NCBI RefSeq assembly: GCF_988243305.1
Contig: NZ_OZ547136.1
DNA length: 64,000 nt
Direction: 5' to 3' (one strand)
Part shown: positions 7,732 through 31,795 of the stretch, in pieces
How positions within the stretch are numbered: the first letter of the stretch is position 1
How the letters are laid out: each line of letters opens with the position of its first letter
Made by a program: the position numbers and the translations under genes
The notes under the pieces: generated by a model
The model's database searches: none
Seen by the model: only the letters and a program-made list of their open reading frames with translations
What the model was told of the DNA's origin: nothing

Positions 7732-8988
7732 ATGTTCCGCCGTCTGCTTATCGCAACAGTCGTCGGTATTCTCGCGGCCTTTGCCGTTGCCGGGTTTCGT
7801 CATACGATGCTGCTACTGGAGTGGTTGTTCCTCAATAATGACTCGGGCAGTCTGGTCAATGCAGCGACAAATCTTTCCCCGTGGCGACGGCTGCTAACTC
7901 CGGCGCTCGGCGGACTGGCGGCGGGTTTGTTGCTGATGGGCTGGCAGAAATTTACCCAGCAACGCCCTCATGCGCCGACCGATTACATGGAAGCGTTGCA
8001 AACCGATGGGCAGTTTGATTACGCAGCAAGCCTGGTTAAATCGCTTGCCTCTCTGCTGGTAGTAACCAGCGGCAGTGCAATTGGTCGCGAAGGTGCGATG
8101 ATTCTTTTAGCTGCCCTTGCCGCCTCCTGTTTTGCCCAACGTTTTACGCCACGCCAGGAGTGGAAATTATGGATCGCCTGTGGAGCTGCGGCGGGAATGG
8201 CTGCGGCCTATCGCGCCCCGCTTGCTGGCAGTTTATTTATAGCCGAAGTGCTGTTTGGCACTATGATGTTGGCCTCTCTCGGCCCGGTGATTATTTCCGC
8301 CGTCGTGGCGTTGCTGGTTAGCAATCTGATTAATCATAGCGACGCGTTACTCTACAGCGTACAACTCTCAGTGACGATTCAGGCTCGTGACTATGCGCTG
8401 ATTATCAGTACAGGTGTGCTGGCAGGTCTGGGCGGACCACTGTTGTTAACGTTAATGAACGCCTGTCATCGTGGATTTGTAAGTCTCAAACTTGCGCCGC
8501 CCTGGCAACTGGCACTGGGCGGGTTGATCGTGGGTCTGCTTTCCCTGTTCACACCTGCAGTGTGGGGCAACGGCTATAGCACCGTACAATCCTTTTTAAC
8601 CGCCCCGCCACTGTTAATGATCATTGCCGGGATCTTCCTCTGTAAACTGTTTGCCGTGCTGGCGAGTAGTGGTTCTGGCGCGCCCGGTGGTGTCTTTACA
8701 CCGACGCTATTTATCGGTCTTGCCATTGGCATGTTGTATGGTCGTAGCCTGGGATTATGGTTCCCTGATGGCGAAGAAATTACGCTTTTACTCGGATTGA
8801 CCGGGATGGCGACACTGTTGGCGGCAACCACGCACGCGCCGATTATGTCGACGTTGATGATATGTGAAATGACCGGGGAGTATCAGCTACTCCCCGGTTT
8901 ATTGATTGCCTGCGTAATTGCGTCGGTAATTTCGCGGACGTTACACCGTGACTCTATCTACCGCCAGCACACTGCGAAGCATAGCTAA
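7732..8988 (+). CDS. clcB: ClC-family voltage-gated chloride channel / H+-Cl- antiporter
   Basis: Polytopic membrane protein; start taken at [12 protein letters not shown] (internal Met of track ORF 7672..8988) to give 418 aa. Confidence 0.8.
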
Positions 8989-16329: not shown

Positions 16330-16466
16330 ATGGCAAAGCCGATCATCACGCTCAATGGCCTAAAAATCGTCATTATGTTGGGAATGCTGGTCATTATTCT
16401 CTGCGGTATCCGTTTTGCCGCCGAGATCATCGTGCCGTTTATTCTCGCATTATTTATTGCTGTTAT
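16330..16466 (+). pseudogene. tqsA: 5' fragment of the AI-2 exporter gene tqsA (first ~46 codons), interrupted by the island; the frame runs on into island sequence and stops at 16492-16494
   Basis: Encodes [45 protein letters not shown], then diverges; the rest of the gene resumes at 31796. Confidence 0.8.
16458..16466. repeat. Left copy of 9-bp direct repeat TGCTGTTAT at the island/host junction (putative att core or target duplication)
   Basis: Identical 9-mer at 31787-31795; both lie exactly where tqsA reading frame is broken and resumed. Confidence 0.65.
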
Positions 16467-17231
16467 ATATAACTTATTTCACATAACACGTTGATTTAAT
16501 TAAATAATTTTCACCGCAAAAAGTGCCAAAAATCGCAAAATGACTACACCAGTGACTACACCGTTCGGTGCACTGTATGAAACAACGTGGAACAAATAGA
16601 CACAAGAAATATACAGGCGGATCATCTTTCCAGGGGGAAGCGCACCAATTCATGAGGGGCGTTAATGTCGATATGGGGATCCCCACCTACCGGAATTTTT
16701 TTCCGGTTAAACGTTAATCAGGCTGGTGGGCTTTACCTGTTCGGTAGGTGTTATGATTATCGTAATACCTTTCCCCCAATGGGGTAAAAGCATCAACCGT
16801 AACGAAAGTCGTTATGGTTGCCACTGATACCCCAAATTTGGGTATCACGAGTAAGACCCAAAATCTGGGTGTTACTCTTACTACCCAAACTACGGGTAGT
16901 TTCCGTAGTTTCATGGTCGAGTTGCAGATCTGCAACTCCCCCATTAACCACAGGCGAATTTCCGCCTTCGGTCATTCCTTAATCATCTGCGTAATCATAA
17001 TGATTATTCAGCAAGCGCAATTTTGCACTTTGCTTAAAGTTCAGCGAGTTACCGCGCCGACTTCCTCAAATTGAGGTTTCCGAAAATATCAGCGGGTTAG
17101 CGATTAAGCTGATCATTAATTAAACTGCGAAAATTTCGTAGTTTGTGACTGTCTTTCAGGCAGCTTGTTAACAGTCCTCAGAAGCGAGGGATGTAGCCAC
17201 CCATTTTTGGTCCGTCGGGAATATCAACCAG

Positions 17232-17513
17232 TTACCGCCGCAACCGCTCCGGCTTCTTCCAGTGGTACGTTATTTTCTCCTTCTCCCGATACATCTCCAC
17301 GCGGCGACGGTAGGCCAGCAACTCAAGAACTCTGGTTCGTATGTTGCGCATATCCACGCCATTAAGTTCTATACCATCACGGCGCATCACCTCAGCAACA
17401 ACACGCGCATAGTTTTCGGCTGTCACGCTGTCCGGCTGCGTGGCCTGTTCGTCAGCCTGCTGGCTGATTCCGGCAACGCGGCGGATTAATCCCGTTATTT
17501 CGGCTTCTGTCAT
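17232..17513 (-). CDS. Hypothetical protein, last gene of the packaging operon
   Basis: 93-aa ORF immediately downstream of the large terminase on the same strand; no recognisable motif. Confidence 0.4.
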   Translation of the reverse strand: MTEAEITGLIRRVAGISQQADEQATQPDSVTAENYARVVAEVMRRDGIELNGVDMRNIRTRVLELLAYRRRVEMYREKEKITYHWKKPERLRR

Positions 17514-17526
17514 GCTGCTGACCTCA

Positions 17527-19188
17527 TTACACCCCGCTAAATTCTTCCAGTTTCTGGCGGTGGCTGTCGCTTATATCAAAAGCAAAATCCTCATGCTCTG
17601 CCTGGAATGTACCAAACGCCATCAGCGCCGCCACGCTCGGGTCTATCTTGTTCGGTGATTTTTTCTTGTTCGGCTTGATATTGGCGTTCGCGTCACTCTG
17701 CATCACGACGTTACTCATCGACCAGGACAACACCGGATCGCCACGATGCACAATCACCCTGCGGTTAACAAAAACTTCGAACGATTTCGCCGCCGGACTG
17801 AATCTGAGGTAGGTTTGCGGGAACGGCTCCACCTCAAAACCTGCCCCCTGTAATTGCGTTCTGAGATGCGTGGCGTTCCACGTATCAAAGCCCACCAGCC
17901 TGATATTAAATTTCTCCGCGTCCTGCATGATGTCATCTCTGATCCGGTCGTAATCAATGCAGTCGCCAGGCGTTGTGCGTATCCAGCCTGCTTTAGCCCA
18001 CTGACGATAGATGGCGCGGTTTTTATTGGCGGGGTTCTGTAGCTGAAATTCCGGCAGATAGTGACGGGAAACCAGCATAATGGTTTTACCGACCGGAAAG
18101 GCATAGCACACGCTGGAAATATCGCTGGTTGATGATAAGTCCAGCCCCGCGTAACACTCCTGGCCGTGTAAATCTTCCTCCGTGAACGTTCCGGCACACT
18201 CAGCCCATGCGCCGTTACCCATCCACGGGGTAGCCCCCAGGCACCAGATATTAAATCGCTTTGTCATCATCTCCACCCACTGCGACGGAATACCCCGCGC
18301 TTTCTGGATGGTTGAGGCCAGTTTTTCACGATCCACGGAAACATCAATATTAGGGTTCGCCTTTATCCACATCGCCGGATCATCAACCTCGTTTTCGTCG
18401 TCCAGTTCGTAAATCAGTACAAAAATTGAATCGTTGACCTCTTCGCCGTCCAGGATCTGGCAGCAATAATCATAGTGCTGCTTACAGGCTGAAACGACGT
18501 TACTGCCTGATGTGGTAATAGCAAATAACAGCCCTTCGGGACGTGCGCCCATCCCCAGCTCAAGCGCGGAATAAACGCCGTTATCGGGGTGCAAGTGGTA
18601 TTCGTCCACGATGGAAAGGCTGGGGTTTGTTCCCTCGATGGTTGCCGCTTTTGCTGCCAGCGGCTTTAACAGGCTGTTGCTTTTCGGGTGTATCACCTTA
18701 TGCGCCTGAATATTCACCCGCCTGCGTAACGGTCGGGATAAAAGGCACATCTGACGCGCATCATCAAAGACGATCCGCGCCTGGTCACGGCTCACCGCTG
18801 CGGTGTAAATATCCTGCTGACCGTTCTCCATAATCAGAAACCAGTTAGCCAGAATCGCGGCGGTCGTGGATTTCGCATTTTTGCGCGGCACTTCGATAAA
18901 GGCGCTCGTGTATTTGCGCCGTCCGGTGGCCTTAACCTTAAAGCCGAGGATGCACGCAAAGGCGAACTGCTGCCACGGCTCCAGCTCAATGGGTCTGCCA
19001 CGCATCGGCCCTTTTACGTGCGGGCACACCCTGGAAAAGGCAATAAACCGCTCCACAACCTCACGATCGAACGTGTAAAGGGGGCTTTCAAGGTCCGAAA
19101 AGTACCGTTTAACGGCCTGTTTCAGCCGTTTACAGGCCGGAATTTTGCCCGTTTTTACGTCTTCTGCGTACTTATTCCAGGCGGTCAA
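17527..19188 (-). CDS. Phage terminase large subunit
   Basis: 553-aa ORF with ATPase N-terminal region and nuclease C-terminal region typical of Terminase_1-type TerL; follows TerS. Confidence 0.85.
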   Translation of the reverse strand: MTAWNKYAEDVKTGKIPACKRLKQAVKRYFSDLESPLYTFDREVVERFIAFSRVCPHVKGPMRGRPIELEPWQQFAFACILGFKVKATGRRKYTSAFIEVPRKNAKSTTAAILANWFLIMENGQQDIYTAAVSRDQARIVFDDARQMCLLSRPLRRRVNIQAHKVIHPKSNSLLKPLAAKAATIEGTNPSLSIVDEYHLHPDNGVYSALELGMGARPEGLLFAITTSGSNVVSACKQHYDYCCQILDGEEVNDSIFVLIYELDDENEVDDPAMWIKANPNIDVSVDREKLASTIQKARGIPSQWVEMMTKRFNIWCLGATPWMGNGAWAECAGTFTEEDLHGQECYAGLDLSSTSDISSVCYAFPVGKTIMLVSRHYLPEFQLQNPANKNRAIYRQWAKAGWIRTTPGDCIDYDRIRDDIMQDAEKFNIRLVGFDTWNATHLRTQLQGAGFEVEPFPQTYLRFSPAAKSFEVFVNRRVIVHRGDPVLSWSMSNVVMQSDANANIKPNKKKSPNKIDPSVAALMAFGTFQAEHEDFAFDISDSHRQKLEEFSGV

Positions 19189-19528
19189 GCTCGTCCTCTT
19201 CTTCTGTTTCCGGTGGATTTTTACGGCGGCTTATCGGGTCAAAACCGAGCAAGGAGGCCATTTTTATCATCACCCTTTCAGCGTCGGATTTTGCGCTTAA
19301 TGCGGGGTTTCTGCTCTCGCCGCCCTGACTGTTAACAATGCTGAACCCGCGCGCCGCAAGGTCTGCAACGGCTTTCCGGTAAATGGAGTAGTTGACACAA
19401 TACAGTTCCAGATTGCTCCAGTCGGCGGGGGTCAGGTCTCCCCGTTCCGCAAGCTGCCGCGATTTTTCCCGCCACTGCTTCACGGCGATGTCATCCAGGT
19501 AGGCGGGGGCTTTCGGTGGTCTTGCCAT
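19172..19528 (-). CDS. Phage terminase small subunit (P27-family-like)
   Basis: 118-aa ORF with acidic C-terminus, immediately upstream of and overlapping TerL; family assignment from recall. Confidence 0.7.
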   Translation of the reverse strand: MARPPKAPAYLDDIAVKQWREKSRQLAERGDLTPADWSNLELYCVNYSIYRKAVADLAARGFSIVNSQGGESRNPALSAKSDAERVMIKMASLLGFDPISRRKNPPETEEEDELDRLE

Positions 19529-19817
19529 ACTTATTTTTTCGCCAGATTATTTTTCAAAAAATTCCCGTGCATAAAAATTTGAGGAGGCGTTCGGTGCCCG
19601 GCGGGGTCGGGTTTGTCCTGAAAACGCCCCCCACCCCGTCATACAGCCTCATCAGCGATTGCGGAAACATTCCATAACCTCGCGGTCACGGTCGGTTAAT
19701 CGCTTCGCTGTGATGCGTTCTGCGCGTCCTGACGCTTTATCTTTATGCCCTGTTTCCTGTGTCTTCCATGCGTCACGCTGCCTTATAAGTCCACGGATAA
19801 GGCGGTTTTGTTCCCGC
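19529..19817. other. Candidate cos/packaging-site region between HNH endonuclease and TerS
   Basis: 289-bp intergenic gap with G+C-rich tracts (GGTGCCCGGCGGGGTCGGG, CGCCCCCCACCCCG); location inferred by analogy with HK97-type HNH-dependent cos phages. Confidence 0.3.
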
Positions 19818-20258
19818 TCATTCATCAGCGTCATACATCCAGTTATTGCGGTTAGCGGACCGTTCTTCCTCTTCACGAAATCCACCTGCGGCACGCTTGC
19901 TTTTTGTTGCCGGATCAAGCCATTTCGTTTTCTGGTTATGACACGCCTGACACAATGGCTGATGGTTCCATTCGGGCCAGAAGAGAACATCATCGCCGCC
20001 ATCGATGGGGATAATGTGATCCACCACCACGGCGGGCGTATATATCCCCTTCTCAAGGCATCGCACGCATAACGGGTTTTTACTCAGATACATGGCGCGG
20101 TATTTGTCCCACTGTCTGGAGTACCCACGCGCGCGGCGGTGTCCTCGTCTGGCATCCTCTGCACGCCATGCCGCCCGCCTGTGCTCCTCACACTTACCGG
20201 ACTTAACGCGCCTGTTACAGCCTGGTTCTGTACATCGTCTTAATGGTTGCCACGGCAT
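19818..20258 (-). CDS. HNH endonuclease
   Basis: Cys-rich N-terminus (CTEPGCNRR...CEEH) and VVDHIIP...NHQPLCQACHNQKT HNH motif; sits immediately upstream of terS. Confidence 0.8.
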   Translation of the reverse strand: MPWQPLRRCTEPGCNRRVKSGKCEEHRRAAWRAEDARRGHRRARGYSRQWDKYRAMYLSKNPLCVRCLEKGIYTPAVVVDHIIPIDGGDDVLFWPEWNHQPLCQACHNQKTKWLDPATKSKRAAGGFREEEERSANRNNWMYDADE

Positions 20259-25212: not shown

Positions 25213-25490
25213 AATTCCACCTCTCCGGTTTTAACGTTGATGGTTGTTACCTGTTCCGCTTCGGCAATCTCCCGTTCTGTCAGCGTGGCAAAGTTTGCCG
25301 CCGCCGTGGTCATGAATGCGCTTATCAGGTCGGGATGTTCCTTCGCGTATCCTTCCCGCGTGTGGCGGTCTATCGTTCTGATTGCCACCTTTAAAGCGTG
25401 CTCAGTCATGTCTAACGCTTTATATTTTGGCTCTGTTCTGTCTCTGCGTTTTTGGGTCATTTCTCGCAACCTCTCACTTTTTCGCCTCAC
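25209..25490 (-). CDS. Hypothetical basic protein upstream of ssb
   Basis: 93-aa ORF overlapping ssb start by 4 nt; 5' end overlaps the iteron array so true start may be internal. Confidence 0.4.
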   Translation of the reverse strand: MRRKSERLREMTQKRRDRTEPKYKALDMTEHALKVAIRTIDRHTREGYAKEHPDLISAFMTTAAANFATLTEREIAEAEQVTTINVKTGEVEL

Positions 25491-25662
25491 TTTTTCAAGC
25501 GTCTCACTTCGTCGCAGTTGGGATTTTCGGTTTTTCTATGTGTGTGTTTCATAAGTATTTTTTTACCCCTCACTTTTGAGGATGTATACAGGTCGAAAAG
25601 TGAGGGAGAGCGGGCTAATTTTGGCCCTCTTTCTATCCCCCTCGCTTTTGCTCCTCACTTTT
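25470..25662. repeat. Iteron array (CTCACTTTT, about 7 copies including one inverted); putative replication origin
   Basis: Copies at 25473, 25486, 25502 (imperfect), 25569, 25596 (inverted), 25640 (imperfect), 25654; immediately 3' of the replication ATPase gene. Confidence 0.6.
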
Positions 25663-27061
25663 ATAGCGGCGCTACATCATCCCCATCGATACGAATAACC
25701 CCATCTTTTTCCAGCTTGTACAGCCAGCGCCGGAAGTTTTTCATTTCATACCCCAGTTTTTTCATGTCATCACGTAACAGCGGGATCGTGCACTTGTCGC
25801 CGTTCTGTGTGCGTGAACGGATGCACCCCCATAGCGCGGTATGGTTTTCCGTCTTGTTCCCTGCCTCCTCGATGCGCTCCAGTTCAACAGGAGGGCGCGG
25901 ATCATCCACCACTACCAGCGACGTGATTAATTCACCGTCAGCGTCGGTAAAAAGCTCCACCACGCGTAAGTCATATGCGGCTTCTTTGAGTTCCTCCGCG
26001 TCCTTCATTTTGGTGCATGAGATAACCAGCGCTTCGCTTCCTGCGTCCTCCCTGCGTATCCGGTATTCAGCATCCAGCGAAGCACGAAATGCACTGGAAC
26101 CGCGCGCGCCTTTCGTCTCATCCTTGCCGGAATGGTGAACCACCAGCACCGTGGCCCCTGTGCGTCGTTTCAGTTCGTCACAACCACGGATAAACGCCCC
26201 CATATCACGGGAATCATTTTCATCATTCCCACCAAAGCAACGCGCCAGCGTATCCAGAATAATCATGCGTACAGGTTTACCCGTTTCCCGCTCCACCTGA
26301 CGGGCAGCGATAACCATTTCATCAACATCAAGCGGGGCAGCCGGAAAGATGGGGCGGTTTACCAGATACAGATTTTTCACCTGCTCATCGTGCACAACCT
26401 CCCAGGCTTTTACACGACGCGGAACACCTATACCGCCTTCACCAACCACATAGAGAACCGCACCATGTGCAACCCTGCGGCCTCCCCACTGGCGACCAGT
26501 GGCAACATGGCACGCCCACGATCCGGCAAGGAATGATTTATAGGACCCGCTAGCCCCGTATATGCTGCATAGCGATACCGCCGGAATAATCCCCTTAACC
26601 ACGTAATCCAGTTGCGTGTCGTATCCGGTAGATCCAACGCTCATCGGTAGCGTGGTTTTTCGCTGGTGGTTTTTTTCTTCCACCGGCTCTTTCCCGCGCA
26701 CCCGTTCCAGGTATTCGCGCCAGTTCTCCCGCATATGGCTGTGCATCCCTTCGGGGTAATAATTCGCATCAGTTACACCCGCCGCCGCCAGCTTGTGCGC
26801 AATGGCATTAATATTTGATGGCCTGATGTGGCCTGCCTTGTACAGCCGGACACAATAGCGCCCCTCGTCGATGATTCTCAGGTCTGCCAGTTCATCCAGT
26901 TGATCATCAGCCAGCACAACGGGAGGCACATTATCGCCAGCCAGTCGCCCGTCCTGTTCCTGCCACTGTTTCGCATGTGCCCAGGCATCACTACCCGCAA
27001 AAATAATGACTTCGGTCATCTTGTCGTAAGGCTGTTTTTTTAAGTTCGGTGCGCTTTTCAT
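25661..27061 (-). CDS. Replication initiator with RecA-fold ATPase domain (satellite Pri-Rep-like)
   Basis: 466-aa ORF with Walker A-like YGASGSYKS and downstream ILDTL Walker B-like segment. Confidence 0.65.
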   Translation of the reverse strand: MKSAPNLKKQPYDKMTEVIIFAGSDAWAHAKQWQEQDGRLAGDNVPPVVLADDQLDELADLRIIDEGRYCVRLYKAGHIRPSNINAIAHKLAAAGVTDANYYPEGMHSHMRENWREYLERVRGKEPVEEKNHQRKTTLPMSVGSTGYDTQLDYVVKGIIPAVSLCSIYGASGSYKSFLAGSWACHVATGRQWGGRRVAHGAVLYVVGEGGIGVPRRVKAWEVVHDEQVKNLYLVNRPIFPAAPLDVDEMVIAARQVERETGKPVRMIILDTLARCFGGNDENDSRDMGAFIRGCDELKRRTGATVLVVHHSGKDETKGARGSSAFRASLDAEYRIRREDAGSEALVISCTKMKDAEELKEAAYDLRVVELFTDADGELITSLVVVDDPRPPVELERIEEAGNKTENHTALWGCIRSRTQNGDKCTIPLLRDDMKKLGYEMKNFRRWLYKLEKDGVIRIDGDDVAPL

Positions 27062-27357
27062 TTCTTGCCCCTGAATCCGTTAATCATGGTTTTCAGCTTC
27101 TGGATGTTTGCCCGTGCCCTGGCGTTGCTGGTGGGCACGTTATGCGGCGCGGTCTGTACCAGAGAAAAATCACGCCGGAACTGATAAACAGGCATCACGC
27201 AATCATATTCGTAACCTTCACGGCGGTAGGTTACGCGCCGTTCTTCCACGCCCTTAATCATTACCGTGCCGCCGTACTGGTCGCGGTAAATATCACCGCG
27301 CGTAAATTTAGGGTGAGTGTTGCCACTGGCAGTTAAGCCAGAATATTTAAGTTTCAT
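27058..27357 (-). CDS. Hypothetical protein, translationally coupled to the replication gene
   Basis: 99-aa ORF whose stop overlaps the replication ATPase start by 4 nt. Confidence 0.45.
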   Translation of the reverse strand: MKLKYSGLTASGNTHPKFTRGDIYRDQYGGTVMIKGVEERRVTYRREGYEYDCVMPVYQFRRDFSLVQTAPHNVPTSNARARANIQKLKTMINGFRGKK

Positions 27358-30381: not shown

Positions 30382-31611
30382 TTATTTTCTTCTGGCTACT
30401 GGTAGCGTGGTTACGTTTTCATGTGTTCCCGCCAGTATCCCTAACCGCTCCGTCCACATATCCAGCGCATTGCGTTTAGCATCCAGATAACGGGAATGAT
30501 TATAAACTCGCTGCATTCCTGGCATCTGGTGGCCTGTAAGCTGCTCCACGACATGCGGATCAACGCCTAAATCGTTCAGCATGGTTGTAAAGGTGCGCCG
30601 GATGTCATGCAGTGACCAGTGAGGATGATTAAGCCTCCTGTGCGCTAATCTTCCATACTGCGATACGCTGGCCTCCTGTTTCACTTCCCCCAGCAATAAG
30701 CCCGTGTGCCTGTTCTGCTCCACCAGCTGCGTGACGAACGGCAGGATCGCTTCCGGTATGGGCCGGAATATTGCGACCTTCGTTTTGCTGTGCTCCTTCG
30801 GAACGGTCCATAGCATTTCCGTAAAATCCCACTCCCCGATCTCCGATAACCTCAGTTCTACCGTTCTGGCTCCGAAGACAATCAGGAGGCGGATTAACGC
30901 GACGTAGTAAGGGGAGAATATTTTTTTGTCCAGTGCCTGCAATAATTCGCCAAGTTCTTTGTTACTTAAGACACGTTCGCTTATATCCGGTTTTTTCCCA
31001 ACGTCCGCCACGTTCAGATCGTCCAGAACGTTGCTGATTGCATAGCGCCGCCTACGGCAGAACTTAAGCGCCTGTTTGCACGCCTGTAGCACGAATCCGG
31101 CAGTAACAGGCGTTCGCTTTGCCACCTGGTCAAAACAGGCCAGCCAGTGCCGTAGCTCGCATTTATCCAGCGGCATAGCACCAATCTGCTGTATTACGTG
31201 ATTATTAAGTCGCCTTTTCAGGGCGATATAATCCACGCGGTTTTCCTTTACGTAATACTCAAGCCAGTAGGTGAGCGCATCGCCAACCGTTACGGGCTTT
31301 AACGCTTCCTGTACGGTGTAATTCATCTCATGACGTGGATTTTTCCCCTCAGCCAGCCATGTGCGACACTGTGCGGCTTTTTCCCTGGCTGCTTTCAGGC
31401 TCAGATCAGGATAACTTCCCAGCTTAATGCGTTCGGGTCGTGTCTCCCTTCCCGTTCCGGCCCTGTATGTGAAATACCAGGTCAATTTCCCTGATGTTAA
31501 ATATTTCACGCTCAGGTTTCCGCCATCACTATAAAACGTGTTTTTCTCCGCTGGCTTACCATGAAGTTTCCTTAGCAAGGTATCGCTCAGTTTGTTCATT
31601 GCTCTGCTCAC
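30382..31611 (-). CDS. int: Tyrosine site-specific integrase (P4-type)
   Basis: 409-aa ORF; C-terminal catalytic region with HDIRRTF (H-x-x-R) and a downstream tyrosine; located at the island right end. Confidence 0.85.
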   Translation of the reverse strand: MSRAMNKLSDTLLRKLHGKPAEKNTFYSDGGNLSVKYLTSGKLTWYFTYRAGTGRETRPERIKLGSYPDLSLKAAREKAAQCRTWLAEGKNPRHEMNYTVQEALKPVTVGDALTYWLEYYVKENRVDYIALKRRLNNHVIQQIGAMPLDKCELRHWLACFDQVAKRTPVTAGFVLQACKQALKFCRRRRYAISNVLDDLNVADVGKKPDISERVLSNKELGELLQALDKKIFSPYYVALIRLLIVFGARTVELRLSEIGEWDFTEMLWTVPKEHSKTKVAIFRPIPEAILPFVTQLVEQNRHTGLLLGEVKQEASVSQYGRLAHRRLNHPHWSLHDIRRTFTTMLNDLGVDPHVVEQLTGHQMPGMQRVYNHSRYLDAKRNALDMWTERLGILAGTHENVTTLPVARRK

Positions 31612-31786
31612 GTTTTACCCCCTCTTTACGAAAAAGTGACTACACCAGTGACTACACCGATCGTTGCACAAAGGGCTACAACGTGAAACAAGCTGGAACA
31701 AGGAAAATCACAAATCTGTTGATAATCAAAAACATAATGCACAGCCTGAAACATTATGAAACAGCAAAAAACACTAAATGATAAAA

Positions 31787-31795
31787 TGCTGTTAT
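31787..31795. repeat. Right copy of 9-bp direct repeat TGCTGTTAT at the island/host junction
   Basis: Identical to 16458-16466; the tqsA reading frame resumes here ([11 protein letters not shown]...). Confidence 0.65.

Follow-up and report, generated by a model that had tools for sequence, protein, structure and literature searches.

The 765 bp at positions 16467-17231 of a 64,000-nucleotide stretch of Escherichia coli DNA (the window; NCBI RefSeq assembly GCF_988243305.1, contig NZ_OZ547136.1) are the whole non-coding tail of a capsid-forming phage-inducible chromosomal island (cf-PICI), reaching from the last gene of its late operon to the attachment site. The tail is a mosaic of four separable parts: an attachment-site arm, a palindrome-rich module, a hairpin cassette and an array of degenerate repeat units (Table 1). 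The hairpin cassette is an undescribed, exchangeable, accessory non-coding module of E. coli PICIs that is not needed for integration, replication or packaging. It is real, non-random and conserved, and its role, unproven, is probably played at the level of RNA and dispensable. We tentatively favor the possibility that, in the late-operon transcript, it forms a folded 3′ tail. Neither the cassette nor the box-and-hairpin units beside it were found described in PICI papers or in the full-text literature, searched by sequence string and by topic.

Hairpins of the cassette

Three CCCAAA-N3/4-GGG units, an inverted repeat and a perfect 20-bp palindrome had been listed for this region in an earlier note on the same DNA, and all of them are present where it placed them, save that the spacer of unit 1 is N3 and not N4. 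Longer hairpins (H1, H2 and H3) enclose the CCCAAA units, and the palindrome makes a fourth, H4. The CCCAAA-N3/4-GGG pattern has 6 matches in the 64-kb window against 1.49 ± 1.23 in shuffled sequences, with five of the six inside 16830-16896, and the palindrome is unique even when 3 mismatches are allowed (0 expected). The dense structure that had been read from the letters is borne out by RNA folding, the check proposed along with it: z-scores for 16775-17040 are -10.6 on the plus strand and -10.2 on the minus strand, and that for the minus strand of the whole 16467-17231 is -7.6. Folding energy gives no strand call, since its differences track base composition and the z-scores are similar on both strands. 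Because the four hairpins have unrelated stems and spacings, folding fits them better than one protein that recognizes all of them. Across the 17 distinct variants of the cassette that we compiled (mean identity 94%), 92% of the cells are paired; variation is concentrated in the H1 loop, and the 20-nt stretch TTACTACCCAAACTACGGGT and the H2 loop are invariant.

Covarying hairpins next to the cassette

Between the cassette and the last operon gene, a 93-amino-acid (93-aa) open reading frame (ORF), lies a region (16977-17237) made of an A+T-rich palindrome module and three degenerate copies of a repeat unit, of which other islands carry 1-5. Each unit joins the final 10-20 nt of the 93-aa ORF to a box that reads GGTAACTnnTTGATATT on the minus strand and to a hairpin. 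In its plus-strand reading the box is the consensus WATCAANNNNTTR of integration host factor (IHF), and perfect matches to this consensus number 56 in 24 kb of 40 distinct PICI tails versus 0 in 99 kb of adjacent coding DNA. Ahead of the U-rich tail of box copy 1, the minus strand has a weak terminator-like hairpin (17246-17229).

It is in these units that the evidence for pairing is clearest. Among 10 distinct variants of the unit hairpin, 13 cells change on both sides of the stem, against 5.0 ± 1.7 in shuffles and a level that 0 of 500 shuffles reach, and the covariation score is 0.432 versus 0.173. The inner stem has been replaced completely with both tiers of the hairpin kept (CCUCA/UGAGG, CAGCC/GGCUG and CCCCC/GGGGG), and the outer stem has U-G pairs that are possible solely in the minus-strand reading. 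Variants of the A+T palindrome likewise keep their pairing by double changes (AATCAT/ATGATT versus GGTCAT/ATGACC), and the small hairpin that in other islands is equivalent to that of unit 3 shows the compensatory pair ACGCA/TGCGT versus GTGCA/TGCAC. These compensatory changes indicate that hairpin formation in the tail is under selection, and the best strand signal in the tail favors the minus strand, that of the late operon.

Distribution and exchange of the cassette

The core of the cassette (16821-16943) is present in 705 of 5426 complete E. coli genomes, or about 13%, at 802 places (median 1 and maximum 6 per genome), and all inspected copies lie in PICIs. It is conserved across related islands, as a structured locus of the kind suggested in the earlier note should be, and on this count the suggestion stands. 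The core had no DNA match in the phage collection; three records matched in the plasmid collection, and the one inspected is an excised circular PICI. A DNA-pattern scan of 100,044 species representatives gave three matches, one of which on reading was an unrelated coding region and two of which were in Bacteroidota contigs, and the cassette was absent from that set. In nucleotide identity the cassette exceeds the adjacent coding gene, at 94.9% versus 82.5% in one comparison and 75.4% versus 71.5% in a second, which suggests either constraint or recent exchange.

In about 55 loci the cassette is always downstream of the 93-aa ORF and always in one orientation. Compared with islands that have the same tqsA end and lack 16822-16976 (L082 and L128), it is a clean indel of ~155 bp. 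It occurs in at least three flank contexts, sometimes as two copies 434 bp apart and with the G+C hairpin on either side. The islands that carry it represent three packaging systems, at least four types of integrase and two types of origin, and near-identical islands are found without it or with an alternative cassette. Among 52 islands with enough sequence, the slot holds the hairpin cassette in 22, the alternative in 17, neither in 13 and both in 0, where about 6 loci with both would be expected. The alternative cassette, seen in L113, L092, L100, L115 and others at 30-320 nt downstream of the 93-aa ORF, consists of GTGAC ×4 at 10-11-bp spacing, an A+T-rich stretch and a canonical intrinsic terminator, GACGTGGCCAACGTCATTTTTT, on the operon (minus) strand. 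With respect to gene content, the hairpin cassette is enriched in islands with a D5-type primase (8 versus 1), a partial link that likely reflects lineage structure.

The excised circle (L056, NZ_CP148328.1, 10,790 bp) was deposited as a non-mobilizable E. coli “plasmid” and is a complete circular PICI of the Rpp type, with int, alpA, primase, a capsid-protease fusion, rpp, the 93-aa ORF and an intact attP; the 93-aa ORF, the cassette, about 550 bp containing attP, and int follow one another on the same strand. In L024, a cf-PICI integrated beside hpt, an origin-like module (1170-1360) with three direct GCGGGTTA, an A+T-rich stretch and three inverted TAACCCGC lies between two cassette copies. 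An L003-type PICI, which sits in a prophage capsid gene and has a TIR-domain gene near int, carries an abortive-infection (Abi) family gene (8103-8864) that separates the cassette from the island end and runs convergently to the late operon; the tail is thus also a cargo site. That the cassette itself is the 3′ flank of a cargo gene was rejected, as only the L003-type island has a gene between cassette and att.

Roles tested and rejected

The earlier note had thought of packaging, and a cohesive-end (cos) role for the hairpins was not borne out. The cassette occurs with P27-TerS/TerL/HNH, Rpp (DUF1441) and Nu1-like TerS modules (TerS and TerL being the small and large terminase subunits), and there are cf-PICIs with 100% identical TerS and 98-99% identical TerL that lack it. 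In the window island no lambda-like cosN was found with up to 2 mismatches, and the Rpp island L056 has its lambda-like cosN elsewhere, at 8469-8480, far from the cassette; the cos of Rpp-type islands lies upstream of rpp (PMC9026076). An origin role fails on the comparison with the island copy of E. coli O26:H11 str. 11368, the tail of which is 99.7% identical to that of the window, yet the replicases and the replicase-adjacent iterons of the two differ. A role as integrase arm or AlpA site fails as well, the same cassette being found with at least four integrase types and their att sites and with several AlpA types, and the arm repeats being elsewhere. Shared across packaging, integrase and origin types and missing from near-identical islands, the cassette is therefore not cos, ori or an integrase arm.

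The absence of a convincing ORF, remarked on before, is upheld: NCBI annotates nothing in this region in O26:H11 str. 11368, and across the hairpins 11 of 30 distinct substitutions are synonymous in the best frame, against 16-18 that are non-synonymous and 1-3 stop changes. Coding by way of stop-codon read-through or of a 26-35-aa peptide failed on the same substitution counts. At gathering score, the covariance-model search that had been called for matched no Rfam 15 family in the window, and relaxing it to E ≤ 10 brought just four chance-level matches (12-18 bits); ARAGORN found no tRNA or tmRNA. The cassette was also rejected as a miniature inverted-repeat transposable element or other small transposon, its junctions having neither terminal inverted repeats nor a target-site duplication and its copies being confined to PICI tails, and as a member of the repetitive extragenic palindromic (REP) elements or bacterial interspersed mosaic elements (BIMEs): inspection by eye found no REP consensus, and there are 802 places in all 705 genomes, not hundreds in each.

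Proposed role and competing explanations

The explanation to which we lean, as one possibility among several, is that the cassette is a folded 3′ tail that stabilizes, terminates or insulates the late-operon transcript. Minus-strand transcription of the late/packaging operon would run on into the tail, which would form the 3′ untranslated end; the hairpins of the cassette and of the units, as RNA, would shield the 3′ terminus of the message and hold up or halt transcription. In the excised circle they would insulate attP and int, both of which are downstream on the same strand, and in the integrated state the host mdtJI genes; a further contribution, DNA bending, may come from the IHF-like boxes. 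Judged from sequence, a structured RNA is the leading, unproven reading of the hairpin cluster. It draws on the folding z-scores, the covariation of the unit hairpins, their minus-only U-G pairs, and the compensatory changes in the A+T palindrome and the small hairpins. It draws also on the company that the cassette keeps, in that the mutually exclusive alternative in the same slot ends in a canonical minus-strand terminator and in that, in the commonest flank type, the minus strand has the cassette, then a 10-bp G+C stem, then UUACUUAUU.

A number of observations weigh against a folded transcript tail, and most of them concern the cassette itself. Only 2 of its pairs change on both sides (one in H1 and one in H4), a count that 317 of 500 shuffles match among sequences that are 94% identical; H2 is broken in the most divergent variant; and the wobble and mismatch patterns show no consistent strand. 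The loops of H2-H4 and the linkers are invariant, which structure alone would not require. With both strands checked, a canonical terminator is absent from the cassette in the window, where the G+C hairpin precedes the other hairpins, the reverse of the order in the commonest flank type. The distribution of the cassette is confined to PICIs of E. coli and Shigella, so its high identity may reflect recent spread and not selection. Finally, the cassette-less islands seem complete, which means that any role of the cassette is dispensable.

Some of these points would suit a cassette without function, a palindromic by-product of recombination at PICI ends or a selfish insertion, kept as tolerated filler or for the length fit of a small capsid. 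The clean presence/absence polymorphism between islands with the same end, the various flank contexts and double copies, and a G+C hairpin that changes sides between two contexts, as it might after different resolutions of tandem copies, are all in line with such an origin, as are the make-up of the whole tail as a patchwork of duplicated 3′-end fragments and the narrow, recent-looking distribution; the clustered changes in the H1 loop could stem from template switching in quasi-palindromes, and cos islands are under size constraint (PMC10530653). We nevertheless consider it somewhat unlikely, given that in two independent comparisons the cassette is more conserved than the neighboring coding gene, that variation falls in the H1 loop while the stems and the 20-nt stretch are invariant, and that the strict exclusion between the two cassettes suggests a slot with a role. 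The junctions, with no terminal inverted repeats or target duplication, and the PICI context of every locus inspected, with at most 6 copies per genome, also speak against filler. The invariant loops, and with them the primary sequence as a whole, would be explained by a double-stranded or cruciform DNA site, architectural or protein-binding, acting with the IHF-like boxes as in the IHF-containing RIP elements (BIME-1), whose partner could be the 93-aa protein or else a protein of the host nucleoid or of the helper phage. The IHF consensus is enriched about 50-fold in PICI tails, the cassette is made of near-perfect palindromes, one of them (H4) with a central GATC, and the constant neighbor is a small basic protein. 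This, too, is unlikely in our judgment. One dimeric protein would not match all four palindromes, whose sequences, arm lengths and spacers are different; the 93-aa gene is present in many islands from which the cassette is missing; the quality of the AlphaFold model for the 93-aa protein is too low for a DNA-binding fold to be recognized; and the IHF assignment is by consensus only, the box doubling as the U-rich tail of the minus-strand stop-codon hairpin.

A trans-acting product is more doubtful again. The cassette is a compact, self-contained and strongly folding piece of 120-155 nt whose invariant single-stranded loops and linkers could be pairing seeds, and it behaves as an accessory, movable element, like PICI cargo; a small RNA, or an RNA or DNA decoy, from either strand and directed against genes of the helper phage or host, could be pictured from this, and satellite small RNAs are reported from Vibrio PLE (bioRxiv 10.1101/2022.04.08.487710). 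However, a conserved promoter was looked for at both cassette borders and none was found (the sole promoter-like site, 16597-16625, is on the plus strand), there is no canonical terminator inside, no Rfam family answers even at E ≤ 10, and the sequence resembles no phage record and appears in no paper found. We are similarly doubtful of a bolder version, in which the hairpin cassette and the GTGAC ×4 cassette are alternative alleles of an unrecognized non-coding accessory slot, and the former is a regulatory RNA or nucleic-acid decoy acting on helper phage or host, e.g., by tuning helper exploitation, interference or island induction, beyond ending a transcript. A small protein gene, whether for a minus-strand peptide of the type I toxin kind or as a plus-strand ORF of 50-86 aa, is very improbable. 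Of the six frames, three run through the cassette uninterrupted, the 9-bp indel keeps the frame, the most divergent variant has five substitutions in an ELQICNSTM stretch that are synonymous without exception in one frame of the minus strand, and NCBI annotates a “hypothetical protein” over the cassette in a few genomes; against this stand the substitution counts given above, a stop that truncates the minus-strand peptide in the divergent variant, the want in that peptide of a shared start codon or ribosome-binding site, plus-strand ORFs whose starts and ends differ by flank type, and the many annotations, the majority, that call nothing there. Least credible, and largely refuted, is a cis site of the core machinery, be it cos/pac, replication origin or integrase/excisionase arms. 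Its appeal lies in the position, which is that of the P4 cos between the late operon and the accessory region with int, in three repeats whose spacing of about 27 bp looks iteron-like, in the ori-like module in the tail of some islands (L024) and in the enrichment with D5-type primases; it founders on a cassette shared across three packaging modules, at least four integrases and differing replicases and iterons, the true sites being elsewhere.

Comparison with known systems

As a whole, the tail most resembles the IHF-containing REP/BIME clusters, of which it is not a member. Like the REP/BIME elements and RIP in particular, it is made of extragenic palindromes that are restricted to one species and stand at an operon's 3′ end, variable in copy number, mosaic and associated with the IHF consensus. 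REP elements protect mRNA 3′ ends and attenuate transcription, which matches the mechanism proposed here for the folded transcript tail. The cassette differs in being found in PICIs only, in having 1-6 copies per genome and not hundreds, in its 155 bp with four different hairpins, and in lacking a link to the REP-associated (RAYT) transposases. Intrinsic terminators and structured 3′ untranslated regions of late operons in phages and satellites are alike, too, in their strong hairpins and in their place, immediately past the last gene and on its strand, and the alternative cassette has a canonical terminator; the window cassette, in contrast, has no stem with a U-tract, and a conserved 120 nt with four hairpins far exceeds what termination needs.

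Other resemblances are more superficial. The satellite cos sites (P4 cos; cos1/cos2 of the Rpp-type EcCICFT073) share with the cassette a non-coding cis region near packaging genes and an island end, but the window island has no lambda-type cosN and the cassette is independent of terminase type and dispensable. The iteron origins of P4 (with TGTTCACC in ori and crr) and of the Staphylococcus aureus pathogenicity islands (SaPIs; iterons flanking an A+T-rich region by rep) recall the three repeats at about 27-bp spacing, whereas the cassette has neither an A+T-rich unwinding region nor those iterons, and true iterons lie beside the replicases and differ between islands that share the tail. Retroregulation at lambda sib likewise involves a hairpin-rich site that is parted from int by integration and rejoined by excision; the cassette, however, ends up upstream of int and not downstream, and for this reason it cannot be a 3′ entry site for RNase III on int mRNA and at most blocks read-through. 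Lastly, the attachment-site arms of tyrosine integrases of the lambda, P4 and PICI types are matched by a duplicated core, an IHF consensus next to the core, repeats in both arms that vary with the integrase type, and an arm-binding integrase domain, but these features explain 16458-16620 only, and the hairpin cluster, 355 bp away from the crossover, does not depend on the type of integrase.

In E. coli, PICIs are major vehicles of both gene transfer and phage defense, and work on them has been almost wholly about their proteins. The present analysis gives a first anatomy of the tail, with a mapped tqsA-type attL arm, a highly conserved cassette, a second cassette exclusive with it, and arrays of IHF-like boxes with covarying hairpins. 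If the cassette does shape late-operon expression or insulate int or host genes, it bears on the timing of the satellite life cycle, and it would matter for engineered PICI delivery vehicles, in which this “empty” region is the natural place for insertion of cargo. Should it be neutral filler, it would still be a useful marker of recombination between PICI lineages.

Layout of the tail and island context

The window is E. coli chromosome (ynfEFGH, dmsD, clcB, mlc, asr, ydgD and mdtIJ) in which an island of ~15.3 kb interrupts tqsA. On the minus strand, ORFs and Pfam matches give the island order int, AlpA-like regulator, replicase, ssb, HK97-type capsid, protease, portal, connectors, HNH, P27-family TerS, TerL and the 93-aa ORF. 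The island is a cf-PICI, being about 15 kb long and bounded by att sites, with int and the AlpA-like gene at one end, a replicase, its own capsid and packaging set and no tail genes; a cf-PICI family of matching architecture has been described (bioRxiv 10.1101/2022.09.08.507074). For the island copy in O26:H11 str. 11368, NCBI annotation agrees on gene content, and tqsA is annotated there as two pieces around the island.

The earlier note had placed the region at a non-coding island end beside the last packaging-operon gene, which is correct, the end being the one distal to int, and it had drawn the boundaries rightly: 16467 is the first island base past the att core and 17231 abuts the stop of the last late-operon ORF. 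By megablast the 765 bp are modular, and pieces spanning query positions 25-356 are found in many genomes. The palindrome-rich module is collinear in the cassette-less islands L082, L128 and L113.

Table 1. Features of the island tail and of the island parts discussed (positions in the window)
Feature	Position	Strand	Remarks
attL P′ arm	16458-16620		Core, IHF-consensus site and tandem integrase arm repeats (probable) that recur at attR
attL crossover core TGCTGTTAT, 9 bp	16458-16466	.	Inside disrupted tqsA; second copy 31787-31795 at attR
IHF consensus AATCAACGTGTTA (candidate site)	16484-16496	minus	Perfect match to pattern WATCAANNNNTTR; P′ arm, 18 bp from crossover core
P′ arm repeat	16537-16612	plus	Includes tandem TGACTACACC ×2 at 16541-16562
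Palindrome-rich module	16621-16821	.	Common to many PICI ends, with or without hairpin cassette
TGGGGATCCCCA	16674-16685		In palindrome-rich module
CCGGAATTTTTTTCCGG	16690-16706		In palindrome-rich module
CCCCAATGGGG	16774-16784		In palindrome-rich module
Hairpin AACCGTAACGAAAGTCGTTATGGTT	16795-16819		In palindrome-rich module
Hairpin cassette, ~155 bp	16822-16976	minus	Ends ±2; strand is that of the upstream operon
H1	16826-16846		Encloses CCCAAA unit
Unit 1 CCCAAATTTGGG	16831-16842		CCCAAA-N3-GGG
H2	16849-16877		Encloses CCCAAA unit
Unit 2 CCCAAAATCTGGG	16857-16869
H3	16880-16900		Encloses CCCAAA unit
Unit 3 CCCAAACTACGGG	16884-16896
Inverted repeat	16890-16895, 16903-16908		CTACGG, CCGTAG
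9-bp tandem duplication GTAGTTTC	16896-16903, 16905-16912		At H3
Perfect 20-bp palindrome GAGTTGCAGATCTGCAACTC (H4)	16919-16938		Central GATC
G+C hairpin AGGCGAATTTCCGCCT	16952-16967		In cassette
Degenerate-unit array	16977-17237		Unit: 3′ end of 93-aa gene, IHF-like box, hairpin
A+T-rich palindrome module	16977-17011	minus	CTGAAT-AATCAT-T-ATGATT-ACGCAG-ATGATT-AAGG
Degenerate unit 3	17012-17054	minus	Small hairpin GCGCAATTTTGCAC and box copy AAGTTCAGCGAGTTACCG (17037-17054); repeat family D1
Degenerate unit 2	17057-17102	minus	Two-tier hairpin 17057-17083 (TCGGAAACCTCAATTTGAGGAAGTCGG, minus reading) and box copy AATATCAGCGGGTTAGCG (17085-17102)
Box copy 1 AATATCAACCAGTTACCG	17220-17237	plus	Overlaps stop codon of 93-aa ORF; perfect IHF consensus 17222-17234
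93-aa ORF, phrog_1561	17232-17513	minus	Last late/packaging-operon gene; constant neighbor of tail
TerL	17527-19188
P27-family TerS	19172-19528
HNH	19818-20258
int	30382-31611	minus	Arm-DNA-bind_3 domain
attR side	31633-31795	plus	P arm with TGACTACACC ×2 (31637-31658) and core copy 31787-31795; directly upstream of int

The host gene tqsA, which encodes the autoinducer-2 exporter, is split at window positions 16330-16494 and 31787 onward. What remains of it is an N-terminal piece of 54 aa, fused with sequence of the island, and a C-terminal piece without a start, and the gene is presumably inactive in the strain of the window. Within the packaging genes, HNH and TerS are separated by a gap of ~290 bp (19529-19817), for which the O26 annotation gives a small ORF with a frameshift; to judge by HK97, this gap is where the cf-PICI cos site would be expected.

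Attachment-site arms

The left ~150 bp of the tail have, by their sequence, the look of a classical P′ arm and of an ordinary member of the class of attP arms. The integrase-arm function that had been offered as one reading of the region is accordingly right for this part, for the IHF-consensus site and the two tandem TGACTACACC copies that recur at attR, and wrong for the hairpins. The 76-nt stretch that contains the tandem copies is a direct repeat of 31633-31708 beside int (76% identical), and within the island the TGACTACACC motif is restricted to 16541, 16553, 31637 and 31649; these repeats are probable arm-type binding sites of the integrase. Islands with other integrases have tandem repeats of their own in both arms, such as GGATACC ×2 in L002 (tRNA-Ile) and GGTGTAGTYAA ×2 in L056. 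The match at 16484-16496 is a candidate IHF site by its consensus, and other tqsA-type island ends (L113, L128 and others) have a site of the same type at the matching position.

The 93-aa ORF and the replicases

The product of the 93-aa ORF is small and basic, with a strongly basic C-terminus, and its gene invariably closes three different PICI packaging modules. The family is narrow: an exhaustive HMMER search, in which most matches were fragments of this family itself, gave 36 cluster representatives at E ≤ 0.001. No Pfam match was found for the protein, the PHROGs that it matches are all of function unknown, and the AlphaFold model is poor (predicted local distance difference test score, 58). 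A protein-pattern scan of the 100,044 species representatives found no relative, and the phage collection held one weak partial match only. The searches with this protein and with the cassette core thus gave no deep alignment for covariation.

The window island has a replicase of the AAA_25 helicase type (25661-27061, minus strand), and the O26 str. 11368 island (L001) a D5-type primase (25266-27083, D5_N/Pox_D5). The two share an N-terminal domain of 130 aa with 73% identity and no Pfam match. Directly downstream of the window replicase gene, 25473-25660 carries CTCACTT ×5 (AAAGTGAGG on the gene strand) at spacings of about 83-85 bp and 13-17 bp, and is probably the replication origin of the island. 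In L001, 24960-25290, just downstream of the primase gene, has at least 10 copies of TGTTCACC or GGTGAACA, the type I iteron of satellite phage P4 ori and crr, and these repeats point to a P4-like origin in this PICI lineage.

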